Positions 2,177-49,270 of a DNA stretch of 49,839 nt are shown here, one piece after another. A program made the translations under genes and the position numbers. The notes beneath the pieces were generated by a model. The model searched no databases, was not told where the DNA came from, and saw only the letters and a list, made by a program, of their open reading frames with translations. The stretch spans positions 1-49,839 of the forward strand of contig JBCCHY010000003.1 in NCBI GenBank assembly GCA_039028495.1. Reading direction: 5' to 3'. Every line of letters starts with the position of its first letter. Position 1 is the first letter of the stretch. Source of the DNA: Patescibacteria group bacterium (GTDB lineage Bacteria; Patescibacteriota; Saccharimonadia; Saccharimonadales; VXPC01).

Positions 2177-2557
2177 ATGGAATTTATGTTATCAGTTCTT
2201 ATTGGGATGATCGTGATGGCTGTTATTGATGGCCCGGTGATCAAATATGTTATAAGACCGACTCTTGAAAGCACTGCTAAGGGTATTTCTAGAGACACGC
2301 CCAACTTTCCCGCAGCAATTGTTTTCTACGTTGGGTATGTTTCTATGGTTGTGTACCTCAGCCAGCTACTTGGTGATACGAGTGCGGAGGTTGCTTTCTA
2401 TGGTGGGTTACTAGGGCTTTTTGCATACGGAACGTACGAATTTACTAATATGGCGGTGCTTAAGGGTTGGTCGTGGAAAATGGTTATGATCGACACAGTA
2501 TGGGGCGTCATTCTCACTTCGGCAGTTGCGACCCTAGCCTACATCTTCACAAACTAA
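2177..2557 (+). CDS. DUF2177-like membrane protein
   Basis: Four hydrophobic segments; YGTYEFTNMAVLKGW...DTVWG motif; start placed at ATG 2177, 6 nt after TATAAT (track start 2159 is in frame). Confidence 0.8.
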   Translation: MEFMLSVLIGMIVMAVIDGPVIKYVIRPTLESTAKGISRDTPNFPAAIVFYVGYVSMVVYLSQLLGDTSAEVAFYGGLLGLFAYGTYEFTNMAVLKGWSWKMVMIDTVWGVILTSAVATLAYIFTN

Positions 2558-2584
2558 AAACCAGCCTCCTGGTTAGTTTATATA

Positions 2585-2765
2585 TGGTGCGCGAGTAGGG
2601 ACTTGGTCACGTCTCGCGACCCCGTAATTTCATGGCGTTAAACAAGTTTCATCCAGAAAGTTTCCTTGCTGACTGCCACAGGCAGTCCTCACCTTCACGC
2701 CTAGGGTTTGGCTCAAGTCCATCTCACATACCAAAACAAAAAGACCCAAATGGGTCTTCACGTTT
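2585..2765 (-). repeat. tRNA-Leu 3'-derived downstream element (hairpin, inverted 3' copy, T-loop-split direct copy)
   Basis: 2585-2605 matches the tRNA 3' end at 19/21; 2691-2702 is identical to the tRNA segment 5' of the T-loop; 2713-2737 is a degenerate inverted copy; hairpin at 2741-2758. Confidence 0.8.
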
Positions 2766-2850
2766 TGGTGCGCGAGAAAGGACTTGAACCTTCACGCCTT
2801 GCGGCACTAGTTCCTAAGACTAGCGTGTCTACCAATTCCACCACTCGCGC
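2766..2850 (-). tRNA. tRNA-Leu(TAG)
   Basis: Reverse complement GCGCGAGTGGTGGAATTGGTAGAC...CTAGT-CTTAGGA-ACTAG...GGTTCAAGTCC...CGCGCACCA; long variable arm; encoded CCA. Confidence 0.97.
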
Positions 2851-5486: not shown

Positions 5487-6773
5487 ATGAAAGTCACCAC
5501 TAAAGAAACTACAGATACATCAACAACCCTGCTAGTCGTTGTTGATGCAAAAGAAATAGAAAAGTCTAAAGCCAAAGCCCTGAAGCAATTCGGTAAAAGC
5601 GTCAAAGCCCAGGGCTTTCGCAAAGGCAAGGCTCCTGCAAAAGTTGTTGAGCAGCAAGTAGACCCCAACGAGCTATCAGCAGCTGTGCTAAATGACGTAG
5701 TCCCGGTTCAAGCAGGTATGGCGCTAGAGCAGAAAAAAATACTAACAGCCATTCAGCCGGACGTCACAGTGACAAAATTTGTGCCATACAGTGAACTTGA
5801 GATTGAAATCAAAGCCGAGTTTGTAGCTAATGTAAAGCTCATGGACTACAAAAAGAAAATCACGAAAGCAAAACCAAAAGTAGATGTCACTGACGAAGAG
5901 GTCGAAAACGTACAAAAACGAATCCAGTTCGACATGAGTGAGCGCAAAGAGGTGGACCGTGCAGCAAAACTTGACGATCAGGTCTGGATTGATTTCTCTG
6001 GAACTGACAAAGACGGCAAAGAAGTAGATGGCGCTAGCGGCGAAGACTACCCCCTAGCACTGGGGAGCAATACATTCATCCCTGGATTCGAAGATGAGTT
6101 AGTCGGTGTAAAGACAGGTGACGAAAAAAAGTTTGATGTTACGTTCCCGAAAGACTACCAGGCAGAAAAGCTCGCAGGTGCCAAGGTCACGTTCAAAGTA
6201 ACAGTTAAAAAGGTGCAAGAAGTCATCATCCCCGAGATAAATGATGGGCTTGCAAAGCAAGTAGGCCCCTACAAAGACGCACAAGAACTGCTAGCAGATA
6301 TCAGAACAAAGGTAGAAGAGGATAAGGTTCATAAGGCCGAAATGGCGCTCGAGACAGAGATTGTCAATGAAATAGCCGAGGGCTCTACTATGGATATCCC
6401 AGACAAGATGATCGATATGCAGACCCAGGCAATTCTGGAGGAACATCAGCGCAACCTTCAGTACCAGGGCACAACGTACGAAGCGTGGCTAGAATCAGAG
6501 AGCTTAACACCTGAATCGCATGGTGAGCAGATGAAAGAAACAGCCGAAAAGCGCGTCCGCGGCGGCATTGTCCTCTCAGAAGTAGCCAAAGCTGAAGGAG
6601 TCGAGGTGACAGATGACGAGATTACTCAGGCAATGGAACAATACAAAGCGCAGTATGCCTCAGACCCACAGATGCAGATGGAGCTCGCCAAGCCTGATGC
6701 TCGTAGAGACATAGCCGCCAGACTCCTAACAGGCCGTACTCTAGATAAACTCAAAGAACTAATCTTGAAATAA
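5487..6773 (+). CDS. tig: Trigger factor
   Basis: GFRKGKAP ribosome-binding motif; FKBP domain FIPGFEDEL...VTFPKDY. Confidence 0.96.
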   Translation: MKVTTKETTDTSTTLLVVVDAKEIEKSKAKALKQFGKSVKAQGFRKGKAPAKVVEQQVDPNELSAAVLNDVVPVQAGMALEQKKILTAIQPDVTVTKFVPYSELEIEIKAEFVANVKLMDYKKKITKAKPKVDVTDEEVENVQKRIQFDMSERKEVDRAAKLDDQVWIDFSGTDKDGKEVDGASGEDYPLALGSNTFIPGFEDELVGVKTGDEKKFDVTFPKDYQAEKLAGAKVTFKVTVKKVQEVIIPEINDGLAKQVGPYKDAQELLADIRTKVEEDKVHKAEMALETEIVNEIAEGSTMDIPDKMIDMQTQAILEEHQRNLQYQGTTYEAWLESESLTPESHGEQMKETAEKRVRGGIVLSEVAKAEGVEVTDDEITQAMEQYKAQYASDPQMQMELAKPDARRDIAARLLTGRTLDKLKELILK

Positions 6774-7114
6774 TGATGCAACCCACCCAGATTTGGAAAG
6801 GGGTGGACAAACGTAAAGCAAAAAGACTAGAAAAAGTTGCTTCAACCACAGACCCTGATTGGCTGCGTAATCGTGCAGGTATTGAAGCCATGAGCATAGG
6901 TGCCAAAGCAATTGCTGGCATGTATGTGACTCGTCTTGCAATCAATCTGGGGGGATATATGTGGGAAGCAGGAAGTGTACATCCAGTAGAGGTCGGCCTA
7001 TTGACAACTTTTGTATACCTGGACTTGGGCCTGGCAAAGTCATGCGAGTCACATGTAGTGGTGCGTAATGAGGTGGTGCGTAAACACCAAATTTGGAGTA
7101 GGCCTGACAGATGA
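6773..7114 (+). CDS. Hypothetical protein
   Basis: 113 aa; start overlaps the tig stop (TAATG). Confidence 0.55.
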   Translation: MMQPTQIWKGVDKRKAKRLEKVASTTDPDWLRNRAGIEAMSIGAKAIAGMYVTRLAINLGGYMWEAGSVHPVEVGLLTTFVYLDLGLAKSCESHVVVRNEVVRKHQIWSRPDR

Positions 7115-48192: not shown

Positions 48193-48278
48193 GCAGGGAT
48201 AGTGAAGCGGTCAAACACGACAGACTGTAAATCTGTTGGCTTATGCCTTCGGGGGTTCGAATCCCTCTCCCTGCACCA
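48193..48278 (+). tRNA. tRNA-Tyr(GTA)
   Basis: GCAGGGA acceptor, ACAGA-CTGTAAA-TCTGT, long variable arm, GGTTCGAATCC, CCA; TGaTATAAT promoter at 48169-48177. Confidence 0.97.
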
Positions 48279-48419
48279 GGGATTAAAAGCTCACATTTAT
48301 GTGGGCTTTTAATTTCTAGTATAGAAAGAGGATTCGAACCCCAGGCGCTTCGAAGACAAGTCTGTTGCCCGAGTGTACTCGGCGCACAGATTTGGCGTGC
48401 TTTATCCCTCTCCCTGCAC
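48279..48419 (+). repeat. tRNA-Tyr 3'-derived downstream element
   Basis: Hairpin, inverted 3' copy at 48317-48342, TTCGA at 48349-48353, insert, then ATCCCTCTCCCTGCAC at 48404-48419 (identical to 48261-48276). Confidence 0.8.
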
Positions 48420-48437
48420 ACATGCTAAAATCAAACC

Positions 48438-48815
48438 ATGAGTAAAAACAGAGTACAGTTGCCAAAGTATCTTTTAACACTACCAATCCTAGGCTTAACC
48501 CTAGCCATATTTGCACTGTACATATCATCCGGCACATATGTTATAAGAGACACAGATGACTCCGAGCAGAACTCATTAAACTGCGAGTCGAGAGAGTTCG
48601 AGCAAAAACAAACTACCAGCTTTGGTGCCTTGAACGCGCTTTATGGAGACAGACTGGGTCCAGAAGAGGTGGATAATGAGATATCTAAAATAGGTCCATG
48701 CCCATATGACAATGATGCTGTCGTCAAAATAGTCCCTATATCAGCGCTGTTACTTTCCGTACTGCTCATATACAGCCCAAAATACCTGGTACACAAGAAA
48801 TCTAAGCGTACTTGA
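48438..48815 (+). CDS. Hypothetical membrane protein (2 TM)
   Basis: 125 aa; two hydrophobic segments flank a loop with two Cys. Confidence 0.65.
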   Translation: MSKNRVQLPKYLLTLPILGLTLAIFALYISSGTYVIRDTDDSEQNSLNCESREFEQKQTTSFGALNALYGDRLGPEEVDNEISKIGPCPYDNDAVVKIVPISALLLSVLLIYSPKYLVHKKSKRT

Positions 48816-48979
48816 GATACCGTGACTAACGGTGTATATTATCGTAGTTACATCCGCGAATACTCAGAGGTTAGAGTAATAGTTCTATGAACTGGGTCAC
48901 AGCGGTTCGTAAGTAGCAAACAGCTAAATAATTGCTTGTTTGCATCATCCCATCGATGGGATTCATAAATATCAGTTCT

Positions 48980-49055
48980 GCCGGTGTAGCTCAGGGGTTA
49001 GAGCAACTGTTTTGTAAACAGTGGGTCGCGGGTTCGAATCCCATCACCGGCTCCA
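48980..49055 (+). tRNA. tRNA-Thr(TGT)
   Basis: GCCGGTG acceptor, ACTGT-TTTGTAA-ACAGT, GGTTCGAATCC, CCA; 76 nt. Confidence 0.96.
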
Positions 49056-49229
49056 ATAGTAAGCCCTCCCTCGTGGAGGGTTTACTATTGGAATAGTTGT
49101 ATGAGAACCCGCTAGATCCGCAGGATCGGGTTCGATGATAATCGCAGTCAGAAGAAAGCAGCTTCAGCTATTTTCTTCTGGCAAGTGCAATCTAGCGAGC
49201 TTGCTCGCAATCCCATCACCGGCTCCAAT
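49056..49229 (+). repeat. tRNA-Thr 3'-derived downstream element
   Basis: Hairpin 49052-49092, inverted GAACCCGC, CGGGTTCGA at 49127-49135, insert, then AATCCCATCACCGGCTCCAAT at 49209-49229 (identical to 49037-49057). Confidence 0.82.
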
Positions 49230-49270
49230 CATAAAAGCTCACGCTTTTTTAGACACAGATAACCCCAATA

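Follow-up and report, generated by a model that had tools for sequence, protein, structure and literature searches.

The window, i.e., the whole stretch of 49,839 nt that was analysed, carries tRNA genes for Tyr, Thr and Leu, each of which is followed by a compact module that repeats pieces of the tRNA itself around a hairpin. The same downstream layout is present at 13 of the 32 tRNA genes of this 0.9-Mb Saccharibacteria genome, including all three of the window. Read 5' to 3' on the tRNA strand, it comprises a terminator hairpin (T1), a decaying copy of the 3' part of the tRNA in inverted orientation (B*), a short copy of the 5' strand of the T-arm in direct orientation (b1), a hairpin cassette of 50-85 nt placed in the T-loop (H2), and a final exact copy, 10-22 nt long, of the tRNA's own 3' end, which runs from the T-loop to the CCA (B). 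Often there is also a small hairpin at the apex (H0), and H2 occupies the position of the T-loop, adjoining the second B. The units are cargo-less, as they measure approximately 130-190 nt and contain no genes. All the parts of the Tyr, Thr and Leu layouts were found where the original prediction had placed them (Table 1).

Table 1. Positions of the tRNA genes and module parts in the window
Feature	Positions	Strand	Repeat type
tRNA-Tyr(GTA), intact, CCA encoded	48193..48278	+	
Tyr T1, terminator-type hairpin directly 3' of CCA	48279..48316	+	inverted repeat
Tyr B*, degenerate inverted copy, tRNA T arm to CCA	48317..48342	+	inverted repeats
Tyr b1, short degenerate direct copy ending in T-loop 5' half	48343..48353	+	
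Tyr H2, hairpin cassette, family F1	48354..48403	+	
Tyr B, tRNA 3'-end copy from T-loop position 59	48404..48420	+	direct repeat
tRNA-Thr(TGT), intact	48980..49055	+	
Thr T1, terminator hairpin	49056..49091	+	inverted repeat
Thr B*, degenerate inverted copy, ends in complement of T-arm 5' strand	49092..49111	+	
Thr H0, small apical hairpin between inverted and direct T-arm copies	49112..49126	+	
Thr b1, exact 9-nt copy, T-stem 5' strand and first T-loop bases	49127..49135	+	direct repeat
Thr H2, cassette with two hairpins, family F2	49136..49208	+	inverted repeat
Thr B, exact 19-nt tRNA 3'-end copy	49209..49227	+	direct repeat
Thr T2, second small terminator-like hairpin, 3' of B copy	49228..49251	+	
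tRNA-Leu(TAG), intact	2766..2850	-	
Leu T1, terminator hairpin	2731..2765	-	inverted repeat
Leu B*, degenerate inverted copy of tRNA 3' part	2710..2730	-	inverted repeats
Leu b1, exact 12-nt copy, variable-arm end and T-stem 5' strand	2691..2702	-	direct repeat
Leu H2, multi-hairpin cassette of 85 nt, family F3	2606..2690	-	
Leu B, tRNA-Leu 3'-end copy, 21 nt, 90% identity	2585..2605	-	direct repeat
Leu T2, terminator hairpin, 3' of B copy	2550..2584	-	

In the Tyr locus, T1 represents the tip of a long palindrome made with the tRNA 3' end. The inverted copy includes a 13-nt stretch whose complementarity to the T arm is complete and an additional 33-nt arm, 76% complementary, that spans the terminator, while B is exact over 16 nt (48404-48419). 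At Thr, the B repeat extends to 49234, thus reaching 7 nt beyond the CCA and giving 26 nt at 92% identity. The T-loop is split by the cassette in all three elements of the window and in most others; one exception is tRNA-Arg(GCG) of genome G004, which is followed by a 25-nt copy that runs through the T-loop without interruption. In 23 of 43 elements, B* begins directly 3' of the terminator; the second terminator is mostly unrelated to the first. Weaker mirror versions are also seen upstream of tRNA genes, where the tRNA 5' part is duplicated.

The pattern is not confined to the three tRNAs of the window. Indeed, in 15 of the 32 tRNAs, 10 nt or more of the gene's own last 22 nt are repeated exactly at +31 to +300, as compared to 1.2% of 992 non-cognate pairs and two of 32 upstream flanks in the chance controls; 13 of the 15 remain, since one copy is a neighbouring tRNA gene (Ser-GCT) and another a partial tRNA-His copy. 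Three more loci (Arg-TCG, Ser-GGA, and Met on contig C28) are either degenerate or truncated at the end of a contig. The same layout is found at eight of the 38 tRNAs in the closed 770-kb contig of a relative, as well as in dozens of independent assemblies and metagenome contigs. Nor are the split points random, as the start of the copy clusters at tRNA positions that are specific for the cassette family, namely position 59 for F1 (22 of 34 elements), position 55 or 56 for F3 (five of eight) and position 58 for F2 (both elements).

The H2 cassettes fall into at least six families, which are seen solely beside tRNA genes, and the strong nhmmer matches of F1-F4 all adjoin tRNAs. It had been proposed that the sequences differ from tRNA to tRNA: this holds for the arms, which are tRNA-specific, and fails for the cassettes, which are common to many tRNAs and represented by three families in the window. 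In a first survey, 18 of 27 F1 instances were located 49-303 nt downstream of a tRNA, and three of the other nine were chance matches in unrelated genomes; in a second survey, 22 of 30 loci were located 86-304 nt downstream. The tRNA-adjoining F1 instances are each accompanied by a B copy of their own tRNA and cover at least 12 tRNA species. One F3 cassette is present at tRNA-Leu here and at tRNA-Gln in genome G100, with approximately 84% identity over 96 nt and unrelated flanks, and different cassettes are found in orthologous or tandem units. Cassettes can be exchanged between units that are otherwise homologous, and they recur at many tRNAs and genomes.

The cassettes are conserved as structures. 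In F1, 96.7% of 306 cells are paired, compared to 25-45% in slid controls, both-sided changes occur at seven pairs, and the covariation score was matched by none of 500 shuffles. One F1 pair is G:U in 15 of 17 sequences, and the wobble cells of F2 and F3 include eight and four G:U, respectively, versus no A:C in either. In parallel, the tRNA-sense strand folds better than the antisense strand for all three cassettes of the window. Selection therefore acts on H2 as a hairpin of the tRNA-sense strand, and no such selection acts on B*. The wobble asymmetry and the covariation suit RNA as well as single-stranded DNA. Like H2, H0 is conserved, covarying and common to several tRNAs and genomes. When the covariance models of Rfam 15 were applied, including at permissive thresholds, only tRNAs passed and the weak matches were hairpin look-alikes.

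The distribution of the modules is patchy. F1 is present in 27 of 151 genomes of the order Saccharimonadales, with up to 12 copies per genome, and in none of 150 other genomes sampled across the phylum; F3 is present in 33 of the 151, a count that includes one unpublished genome (G037). Direct B repeats bound the units, and whole units are gained or lost within otherwise identical DNA. In particular, two metagenome contigs (L039 and L042) are identical over approximately 215 nt upstream of a tRNA-Arg, through the tRNA and over 1,490 nt downstream, and their sole difference is one 142-nt unit bounded by an 18-nt repeat. Thus, the check for presence or absence between strains, put forward with the original prediction, has a counterpart in a clean one-unit difference between these two contigs. 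The extra unit is unlike its neighbour, so it does not derive from local duplication, although it could mark a deletion between the repeats rather than an insertion. Empty sites are also found among relatives, such as in genome G003, where Tyr and Thr lie 65 nt apart. New units adjoin the tRNA, and tandem arrays are formed; in L025, arrays of units are located on both sides of a 4.3-kb stretch that bears genes. The F1 motif had no match in viral contigs, the three modules of the window had none in phages, and the two of them that were compared with plasmids had none there.

No integrase had been noticed near the modules, which proved true of the whole genome apart from one Xer-like gene (C25, encoding 308 aa). 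Indeed, the single Phage_integrase match in the genome, which is 96% complete, is Xer-like and represents the only tyrosine recombinase. Similarly, 21 of the 27 F1-bearing genomes, including those with 12, 8 and 7 copies, have only one integrase-family gene, which is Xer-like. Integron-integrase models gave this sole candidate recombinase a score of 137.8, against a cut-off of 265. Y1/HUH transposases and TnpB had no match in the genome, control genomes being detected, and searches of the genome for an IS110 (DEDD) transposase, a reverse transcriptase, a splicing endonuclease and an RtcB ligase returned none. As integrases, Y1/HUH, TnpB, IS110 and reverse transcriptase are all missing, the activity may be provided by the Xer-like recombinase, by a factor supplied in trans or by homologous recombination after DNA uptake.

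Collectively, we tentatively prefer, at somewhat less than even chances, to regard the modules as cargo-less, non-autonomous integrative units that are specific for the T-loops of tRNA genes, carry exchangeable cassettes and are widespread in Saccharimonadales. They look like a new and small kind of mobile DNA that lacks a recognisable enzyme gene. Among the three readings that had been offered, that of a non-autonomous tRNA-targeting mini-element is favoured because of the shared cassette families, patchy spread, copy bursts, tandem arrays and presence or absence of single units. A unit, in a small circular or folded state, would enter by recombination with the T-loop or 3' end of the tRNA gene and would provide the working 3' end and a terminator, the old 3' end being displaced downstream. 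H2 and the inverted repeat formed by b1 and B* may act as a folded single-strand recombination signal, most likely of DNA, comparable to integron attC or to the attachment site of CTX phage, which is also folded. Since B is repeated, the sequence does not reveal where the crossover lies. In genome G019, the distal B belongs to a different tRNA-Tyr type from that of the resident gene, which is more in keeping with great age, or with a crossover located at the far 3' end, than with one in the T-loop. Further points weigh against the integrative reading: neither a free circle nor a single-stranded form of a unit was seen; a unit whose arms are foreign to its target would destroy that target, yet the same cassettes carry arms for at least 12 tRNAs, for which the reading does not account; and the upstream mirror versions demand an extra assumption. 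Among the contigs of the public run that cover the window stretch, neither joints nor variant forms were seen.

Known systems provide partial parallels. The attachment site of CTX phage, one of the Xer-dependent integrative elements (IMEX), whose known target is dif, is a folded single strand that is used by XerCD. The modules likewise reside with a host Xer recombinase that is the sole tyrosine recombinase, and their layout (target half, element, inverted arm, loop, direct arm, target half) corresponds to what would be expected of a CTX-type single-strand exchange. By analogy, the inverted repeat could rebuild a double-stranded mimic of the target. Integron attC sites are described, in excerpts of PMC5027507, as conserved in structure above sequence, with unpaired and wobble features and strand specificity, and the modules share these traits with attC and the CTX site. 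Unlike in IMEX and integrons, however, the target is the tRNA T-loop and not dif or attI, and unlike integron cassettes the modules are unaccompanied by an integron integrase, the models remaining far below their cut-offs. IS200/IS605-derived elements and REP/RAYT are multicopy, consist of small hairpins on one strand, have a junction fixed by a short target and generate no target duplication. The modules resemble them in their small hairpins, several copies per genome and lack of a target duplication of their own, and their family-specific T-loop junctions and strand-specific folding may correspond to the fixed junction and the use of one strand, but the genome has no Y1 transposase or TnpB and the hairpins are confined to spare T-loop copies of tRNAs. 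CIMEs (cis-mobilisable elements) are kb-sized deletion derivatives of a known parent, and MITEs have conserved terminal inverted repeats and a short target duplication. As in CIMEs and MITE-like derivatives, attachment-site repeats bound a unit that has no recombinase of its own and is presumably moved in trans. Unlike CIMEs, the modules have no known parent, and their arms are tRNA-specific while the internal cassettes are shared; unlike in MITEs, the inverted arms copy the local tRNA and not one another, and the repeat is 10-25 nt of tRNA.

A rather unlikely alternative is that the modules are structured-RNA genes or 3' extensions, in which an H2 scaffold is joined to an 18-22 nt tail identical to the 3' end of the adjoining tRNA. 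Such RNAs would be made by terminator read-through and would serve tRNA maturation or direct some factor to the tRNA gene. This would agree with the compensatory changes, the G:U-only wobble and the better folding of the tRNA-sense strand, with the terminator-type hairpin that follows the second copy at Thr and Leu (one of the two being a predicted terminator), and with a B copy that is often perfect whereas B* decays. However, no promoter-like site is predicted within any of the three elements of the window, a terminator-type hairpin separates the tRNA from the module, and Rfam gave no match even when used permissively. Moreover, a tail in tRNA sense is unable to pair with the tRNA, no TnpB-type guide-dependent nuclease was found, and a conserved RNA gene would not typically show the patchiness, bursts of copies, tandem arrays and unit-sized indel that characterise mobile DNA. 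The other two readings of the original prediction, an integration decoy and a structure controlling pre-tRNA processing, gained no support: no internal promoter is predicted, a terminator-like hairpin lies in between and the inverted copy decays without strand bias.

Several more specific candidates were discarded. Archaeal non-canonical T-loop tRNA introns and split tRNAs involve short structured inserts, related ones being found in different tRNAs (excerpts of PMC3241643 and PMC3293823). The modules are comparable in being short structured T-loop inserts that are related among different tRNAs, but two thirds of the tRNA, on its 5' side, are missing from the interrupted copies, and an intact gene is present upstream; an archaeal-type intron was rejected as neither a splicing endonuclease nor an RtcB ligase was found. 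A TnpB-type guide RNA was rejected for want of a TnpB domain, a bridge RNA for want of an IS110 transposase, and a retro-copy derived from a reverse-transcription stop in the T-loop for want of a reverse transcriptase and because the junctions depend on the family. The first examples of the inverted copy had wobble-preserving changes that evoked a tRNA-like gene on the opposite strand; this was dropped because the changes over 43 elements and 856 aligned positions (G>A 32, C>T 27, G>T 25, and others) show no strand bias.

It is also unlikely that the modules are scars of phage or island integrases in the T-loop, i.e., attL/attR pairs with a deleted interior that was later colonised by unrelated REP-like hairpins. 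Integration sites in tRNA genes can be divided into sublocation classes. Elements whose tyrosine integrase crosses over in the T-loop duplicate the tRNA 3' end from there on, which is a known signature of integration (Reiter 1989 and Williams 2002, as cited in PMC9897764). The modules match this pattern in their intact tRNA, insert and direct copy from T-loop to 3' end, and in the stacking of successive units beside the tRNA. The uninterrupted copy at tRNA-Arg in G004 and the arrays that flank genes in L025 also suit a scar, and most of those genomes of the order in which there is more than one integrase-family gene could have hosted such elements. Unlike in an att duplication, however, the insert is only 130-190 nt and without genes, the cassette sits within the T-loop of the downstream copy so that no uninterrupted T-stem/loop/T-stem core is left, about half of the tRNA genes are occupied, and the genome has no integrase beyond the Xer-like enzyme, which is also the sole integrase-family gene in the 21 F1-bearing genomes mentioned above. 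Scars would not account for the narrow range of unit size, for an identical internal order at every tRNA, for an indel of exactly one unit between L039 and L042, for cassettes seen beside tRNAs and nowhere else in the genome, or for the lack of matches of F1 in viral contigs and of the window modules in phages and, for two of the three, plasmids. They also leave the inverted copy unexplained, and the earlier objection that an ordinary att duplication fails on this point is upheld.

A more elaborate form of the integrative reading, which we consider quite improbable, is that each unit is an integrated dumbbell minicircle of approximately 150 nt of single-stranded DNA, inserted in the T-loop by the sole Xer-type or another enzyme, with arms re-templated from the target, for instance by fold-back copying. 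The stem would mimic the double-stranded end of the target tRNA gene from T-arm to terminator, the terminator loop and H0 would close the dumbbell, and H2 would be a side arm that marks the crossover. If this were true, a single set of cassettes could spread to all tRNA genes while carrying no gene itself.

Still less probable is that the modules are by-products of replication template switching at the terminator and T-arm palindromes, i.e., tandem inversion duplications devoid of function and mobility. The direct-inverted-direct order of the copies, in which one turn carries the terminator hairpin and the second turn another hairpin, agrees with such an origin, as do the frequent start of B* right after the terminator and its decay without strand bias, the extension of the Thr repeat beyond the CCA and the weaker mirror pattern at tRNA 5' ends. 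Nevertheless, template switching leaves unexplained the conserved, covarying H2 and H0 shared among tRNAs and genomes, the differing cassettes of homologous units and the extra, different unit in an identical background, and it does not agree with second terminators that are mostly unrelated to the first. Finally, a mis-joining of repeats near tRNA genes during assembly has next to no probability, even if contig ends coincide with many tRNAs of this assembly and one contig of the source run breaks within the F1 cassette, since the layout recurs in the closed contig and in the many independent assemblies, and the public-run contigs cover the window stretch without difference.

The genomes of Saccharibacteria are among the smallest of free-standing cells. 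As approximately 40% of the tRNA genes carry modules in so small a genome, something keeps producing or keeping them. In practice, modules break assemblies at tRNA genes and yield partial tRNA copies that annotation tools can miscall. A search of the literature, supplements aside, brought up no account of such modules in Saccharibacteria or elsewhere, and their covarying cassettes are ready probes for experiments on cultured strains. If mobile, they would be among the smallest site-specific integrative elements described, and would spread in genomes without a dedicated recombinase, which would imply the hijacking of Xer, DNA uptake followed by recombination, or some other enzyme. Since at least one gene-bearing stretch is bordered by them, the modules may also represent attachment sites for gene exchange in reduced genomes.

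All three tRNA genes of the window carry the downstream layout claimed in the original prediction, and its coordinates could be recovered in each case (table). The window corresponds to contig 3 of a genome of 900 kb in 48 contigs, estimated to be 96% complete. The inverted copy pairs with the genuine tRNA 3' end across the terminator, which thus caps an imperfect palindrome of 40-45 bp. Since the deviations of this inverted copy from a perfect one show no strand bias, we read them as apparent neutral decay. The T stem of tRNA-Thr(TGT) (49029-49044) contains a C:A mismatch, marked in the Rfam alignment, and the downstream copy (49209-49216) has the same 3' strand as this mismatched stem.

Coordinates of the tRNA genes and module parts in the window, and of the unit arrays at locus L025
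Feature	Position	Strand	Remark
tRNA-Tyr	48193-48278		
Terminator-type hairpin behind tRNA-Tyr	48279-48316		
Degenerate inverted copy of tRNA-Tyr part	48317-48342		T arm to CCA
Tyr module, short T-loop-like piece			between inverted copy and hairpin
Tyr module, 50-nt hairpin	48354-48403		
Tyr module, 16-nt copy of tRNA 3' end	48404-48419		exact
tRNA-Thr	48980-49055		module order as for Tyr
Thr module, 9-nt copy of T-stem 5' strand	49127-49135		exact
Thr module, 73-nt insert			between 9-nt copy and 3'-end copy
Thr module, 19-nt 3'-end copy	49209-49227		exact
tRNA-Leu	2766-2850	minus	module order as for Tyr
Leu module, 12-nt copy			before insert
Leu module, 85-nt insert	2606-2690	minus	
Leu module, 21-nt copy			90% identity
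L025, two tRNA-Asn-type arrays	2090-2350 and 6600-6810		

The source genome has 32 tRNA genes according to ARAGORN, and 15 of them have, within +31 to +300, a stretch of 10 nt or more that exactly repeats part of their own final 22 nt. The same is found in 1.2% of 992 non-cognate tRNA/flank pairs and in 2 of 32 upstream flanks. Two of these positives stem from a neighbouring tRNA gene and from a partial copy of tRNA-His; without them 13 clear cases remain, and three further loci are degenerate or truncated by contig ends. The partial tRNA-His copy (positions 20-65; contig C37:5792-5920 and the start of C42) lies behind tRNA-His, carries a 66-nt insert just past the anticodon loop, a position unlike that of the T-loop cassettes, and continues into the contig end. 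Several tRNAs, including Phe, Ile, Leu(TAA) and Ala(TGC), are missing from the assembly and many others lie at contig ends; the repeated modules probably caused the breaks at these loci. In a same-family relative with a closed 770-kb contig, 8 of 38 tRNAs have such a copy; a closed genome of another order in the phylum gives 2 of 46 versus a non-cognate background of 3%, its sole clear case being a simple partial tandem copy without cassette. Among 19 relatives, the module is present at the tRNA-Tyr/Thr locus in some and missing from others; in the same-family genome G003 it is absent and the two tRNAs are 65 nt apart. In the window, a 125-aa ORF with hydrophobic ends (48438-48815) lies between the Tyr module and tRNA-Thr, and as the two genes are 44-65 nt apart in G003 and G004, this ORF may have come with an element.

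The inserts group into sequence families common to several tRNAs. In the source genome, F1 is found at Tyr, Ser-GGA, Glu-TTC and a second unit behind Lys-CTT; F2 at Thr-TGT, Lys-TTT and second units behind Gln-CTG and Glu-TTC; F3 at Leu-TAG, Lys-CTT, both Gln and Leu-CAA, plus a copy upstream of Ser-GGA; and F4 at Ser-TGA and Arg-TCG. Additional families are present in relatives, and strong profile matches all adjoin tRNA genes. Of 27 F1 instances, 18 have a tRNA 49-303 nt upstream, as have 22 of 30 loci in a second set (86-304 nt), the other eight comprising four without a match to the search pattern, three without a tRNA in the stretch examined and one with a tRNA 806 nt away. F1 involves at least 12 tRNA species, and in every case the copy behind the cassette corresponds to the local tRNA. 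Random split points would have counted against the original prediction, but the T-loop junctions are not random: in F1 the copy begins at tRNA position 59 in 22 of 34 elements (later in the remainder, owing to mismatches close to the junction), F3 copies begin at 55 or 56 in 5 of 8 elements, and both F2 copies begin at 58.

Among the signs of mobility is that cassettes and arms can be combined differently. The F3 cassette behind the window tRNA-Leu and a cassette behind tRNA-Gln in genome G100 share about 84% identity over 96 nt within unrelated flanks. In G005, units behind five tRNAs have a common small apical hairpin and F1-type cassettes with tRNA-specific arms, and tandem units otherwise alike carry different cassettes, as do those of tRNA-Arg(TCG) in the source genome and at locus L021. 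Arms for a dozen tRNAs with the same cassettes could reflect conversion by the neighbouring gene, re-templating, or cassettes homing independently into pre-existing spare T-loop copies. A rival explanation takes the whole module as a template-switch product.

Other arrangements occur in the source genome and beyond. Upstream of tRNA-Ser(GGA), contig C41:1-240 holds a mirror version with at least two tandem units, each combining tRNA positions 1-70 and an F3 cassette (in the T-loop) with the 3' strand of the T stem, a spacer and part of the T arm in inverted orientation; the repeated segment is the tRNA 5' part, the intact gene stands behind the array, and the contig begins within it. Copies of the tRNA-Gln 5' end, 22 and 13 nt long, lie 100-190 nt upstream of two tRNA-Gln genes (C2:28587-28770 and C12), followed by an F3 cassette in C2 and, in C12, by the 5' acceptor strand copied in inverted orientation, a weaker direct-inverted-direct pattern on the 5' side. 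Behind tRNA-Thr(TGT) and tRNA-Thr(GGT) of G023, shorter repeated units, possibly a further module type, lack the T-loop piece; their small hairpins are followed by no more of the tRNA than its final 11-13 nt (acceptor strand and CCA). At tRNA-Tyr of G019, the downstream 18-nt copy is intact, yet its T stem is of the type found in tRNA-Tyr of other lineages and unlike that of the resident gene; either the copy is old and has been under selection, or it was transferred from another lineage.

The F1 hairpin, as specified by the analyst, was tested in 17 sequences. Standard pairs make up 96.7% of 306 cells versus 25-45% in slid controls, both sides have changed in seven pairs, and none of 500 shuffles reached the observed covariation score. 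The informative pairs are the outer ten only, the eight inner ones being invariant partly because the sequences were gathered with that motif. One F1 pair is G:U in 15 of 17 sequences, and the consensus folds contain eight (F2) and four (F3) G:U cells and no A:C cell. Folded as DNA, the tRNA-sense strand is the better one in all three window cassettes (-11.9 versus -9.8, -14.1 versus -13.2 and -13.0 versus -10.4 kcal/mol). Judged from these sequences, the cassettes are selected hairpins on one strand, the tRNA-sense one. The module has also been considered as a structured RNA; no promoter-like site was found inside the window modules. A search for RNA runs that contain the stretch gave none, and no variant joints were seen in contigs of the source run.

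With the F1 covariance model, the family is detected in 27 of 151 genomes from the order, and one genus has 12, 8 and 7 copies in its three genomes; a sample of 150 other genomes from across the phylum gave no match. F3, searched by BLAST with the window copy, is present in 33 of 151, a partly different set that includes the unpublished genome G037. An exact-motif scan for F1 with one genome per species gave 14 records: ten named Saccharibacteria or Saccharimonadales, one labelled Burkholderiaceae with the same tRNA layout, and three that match by chance within coding DNA of other phyla. F1 further occurs on nine metagenome contigs. The most telling sign of mobility comes from two metagenome contigs, L039 and L042. 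Starting about 215 nt upstream of tRNA-Arg(GCG) and extending across this gene to 1,490 nt downstream, they are identical but for exactly one 142-nt unit, whose borders are marked by an 18-nt repeat of the tRNA 3' end; this extra unit adjoins the tRNA and is unlike the unit common to both. On the opposite strand, identity stops exactly at the 3' end of tRNA-Ser(CGA), where L039 has an F1 unit and L042 unrelated sequence. At L025, the arrays flank a 4.3-kb stretch, possibly an island bordered by tRNA-Asn-type units, with five ORFs of at least 130 aa, three of them with Pfam domains (one histidine-phosphatase and two Ham1-family genes, and two ORFs without a match) and no recombinase. Another rival reading takes the modules as scars of larger elements.

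That integrating elements duplicate the tRNA 3' end is well established (PMC9897764), and the modules share this feature. The literature searched describes neither cargo-less and integrase-less modules of such unit size, nor the T-loop cassette and inverted arm, nor occupation of about 40% of tRNA genes. In the source genome, searches that detected them in control genomes found no Y1 transposase, TnpB domain, reverse transcriptase or IS110 transposase, and the only Phage_integrase match is Xer-like (308 aa). Most genomes of the order have one such gene, and it is the only one in 21 of 27 F1-bearing genomes, including the three richest in F1.

In integrated form the order is target half, replacement 3' end, terminator, inverted arm, loop, direct arm, cassette and old 3' end. 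A small circle opened between the cassette and the 3'-end copy would leave this order. Folded single-strand attachment sites of the CTX type leave a matching topology and would be a second putative route. Collectively, the observations are most simply explained by an integrative module of unit size, with repeats of the tRNA 3' end as its borders and the strand-specific hairpin cassette beside the junction as its selected part.
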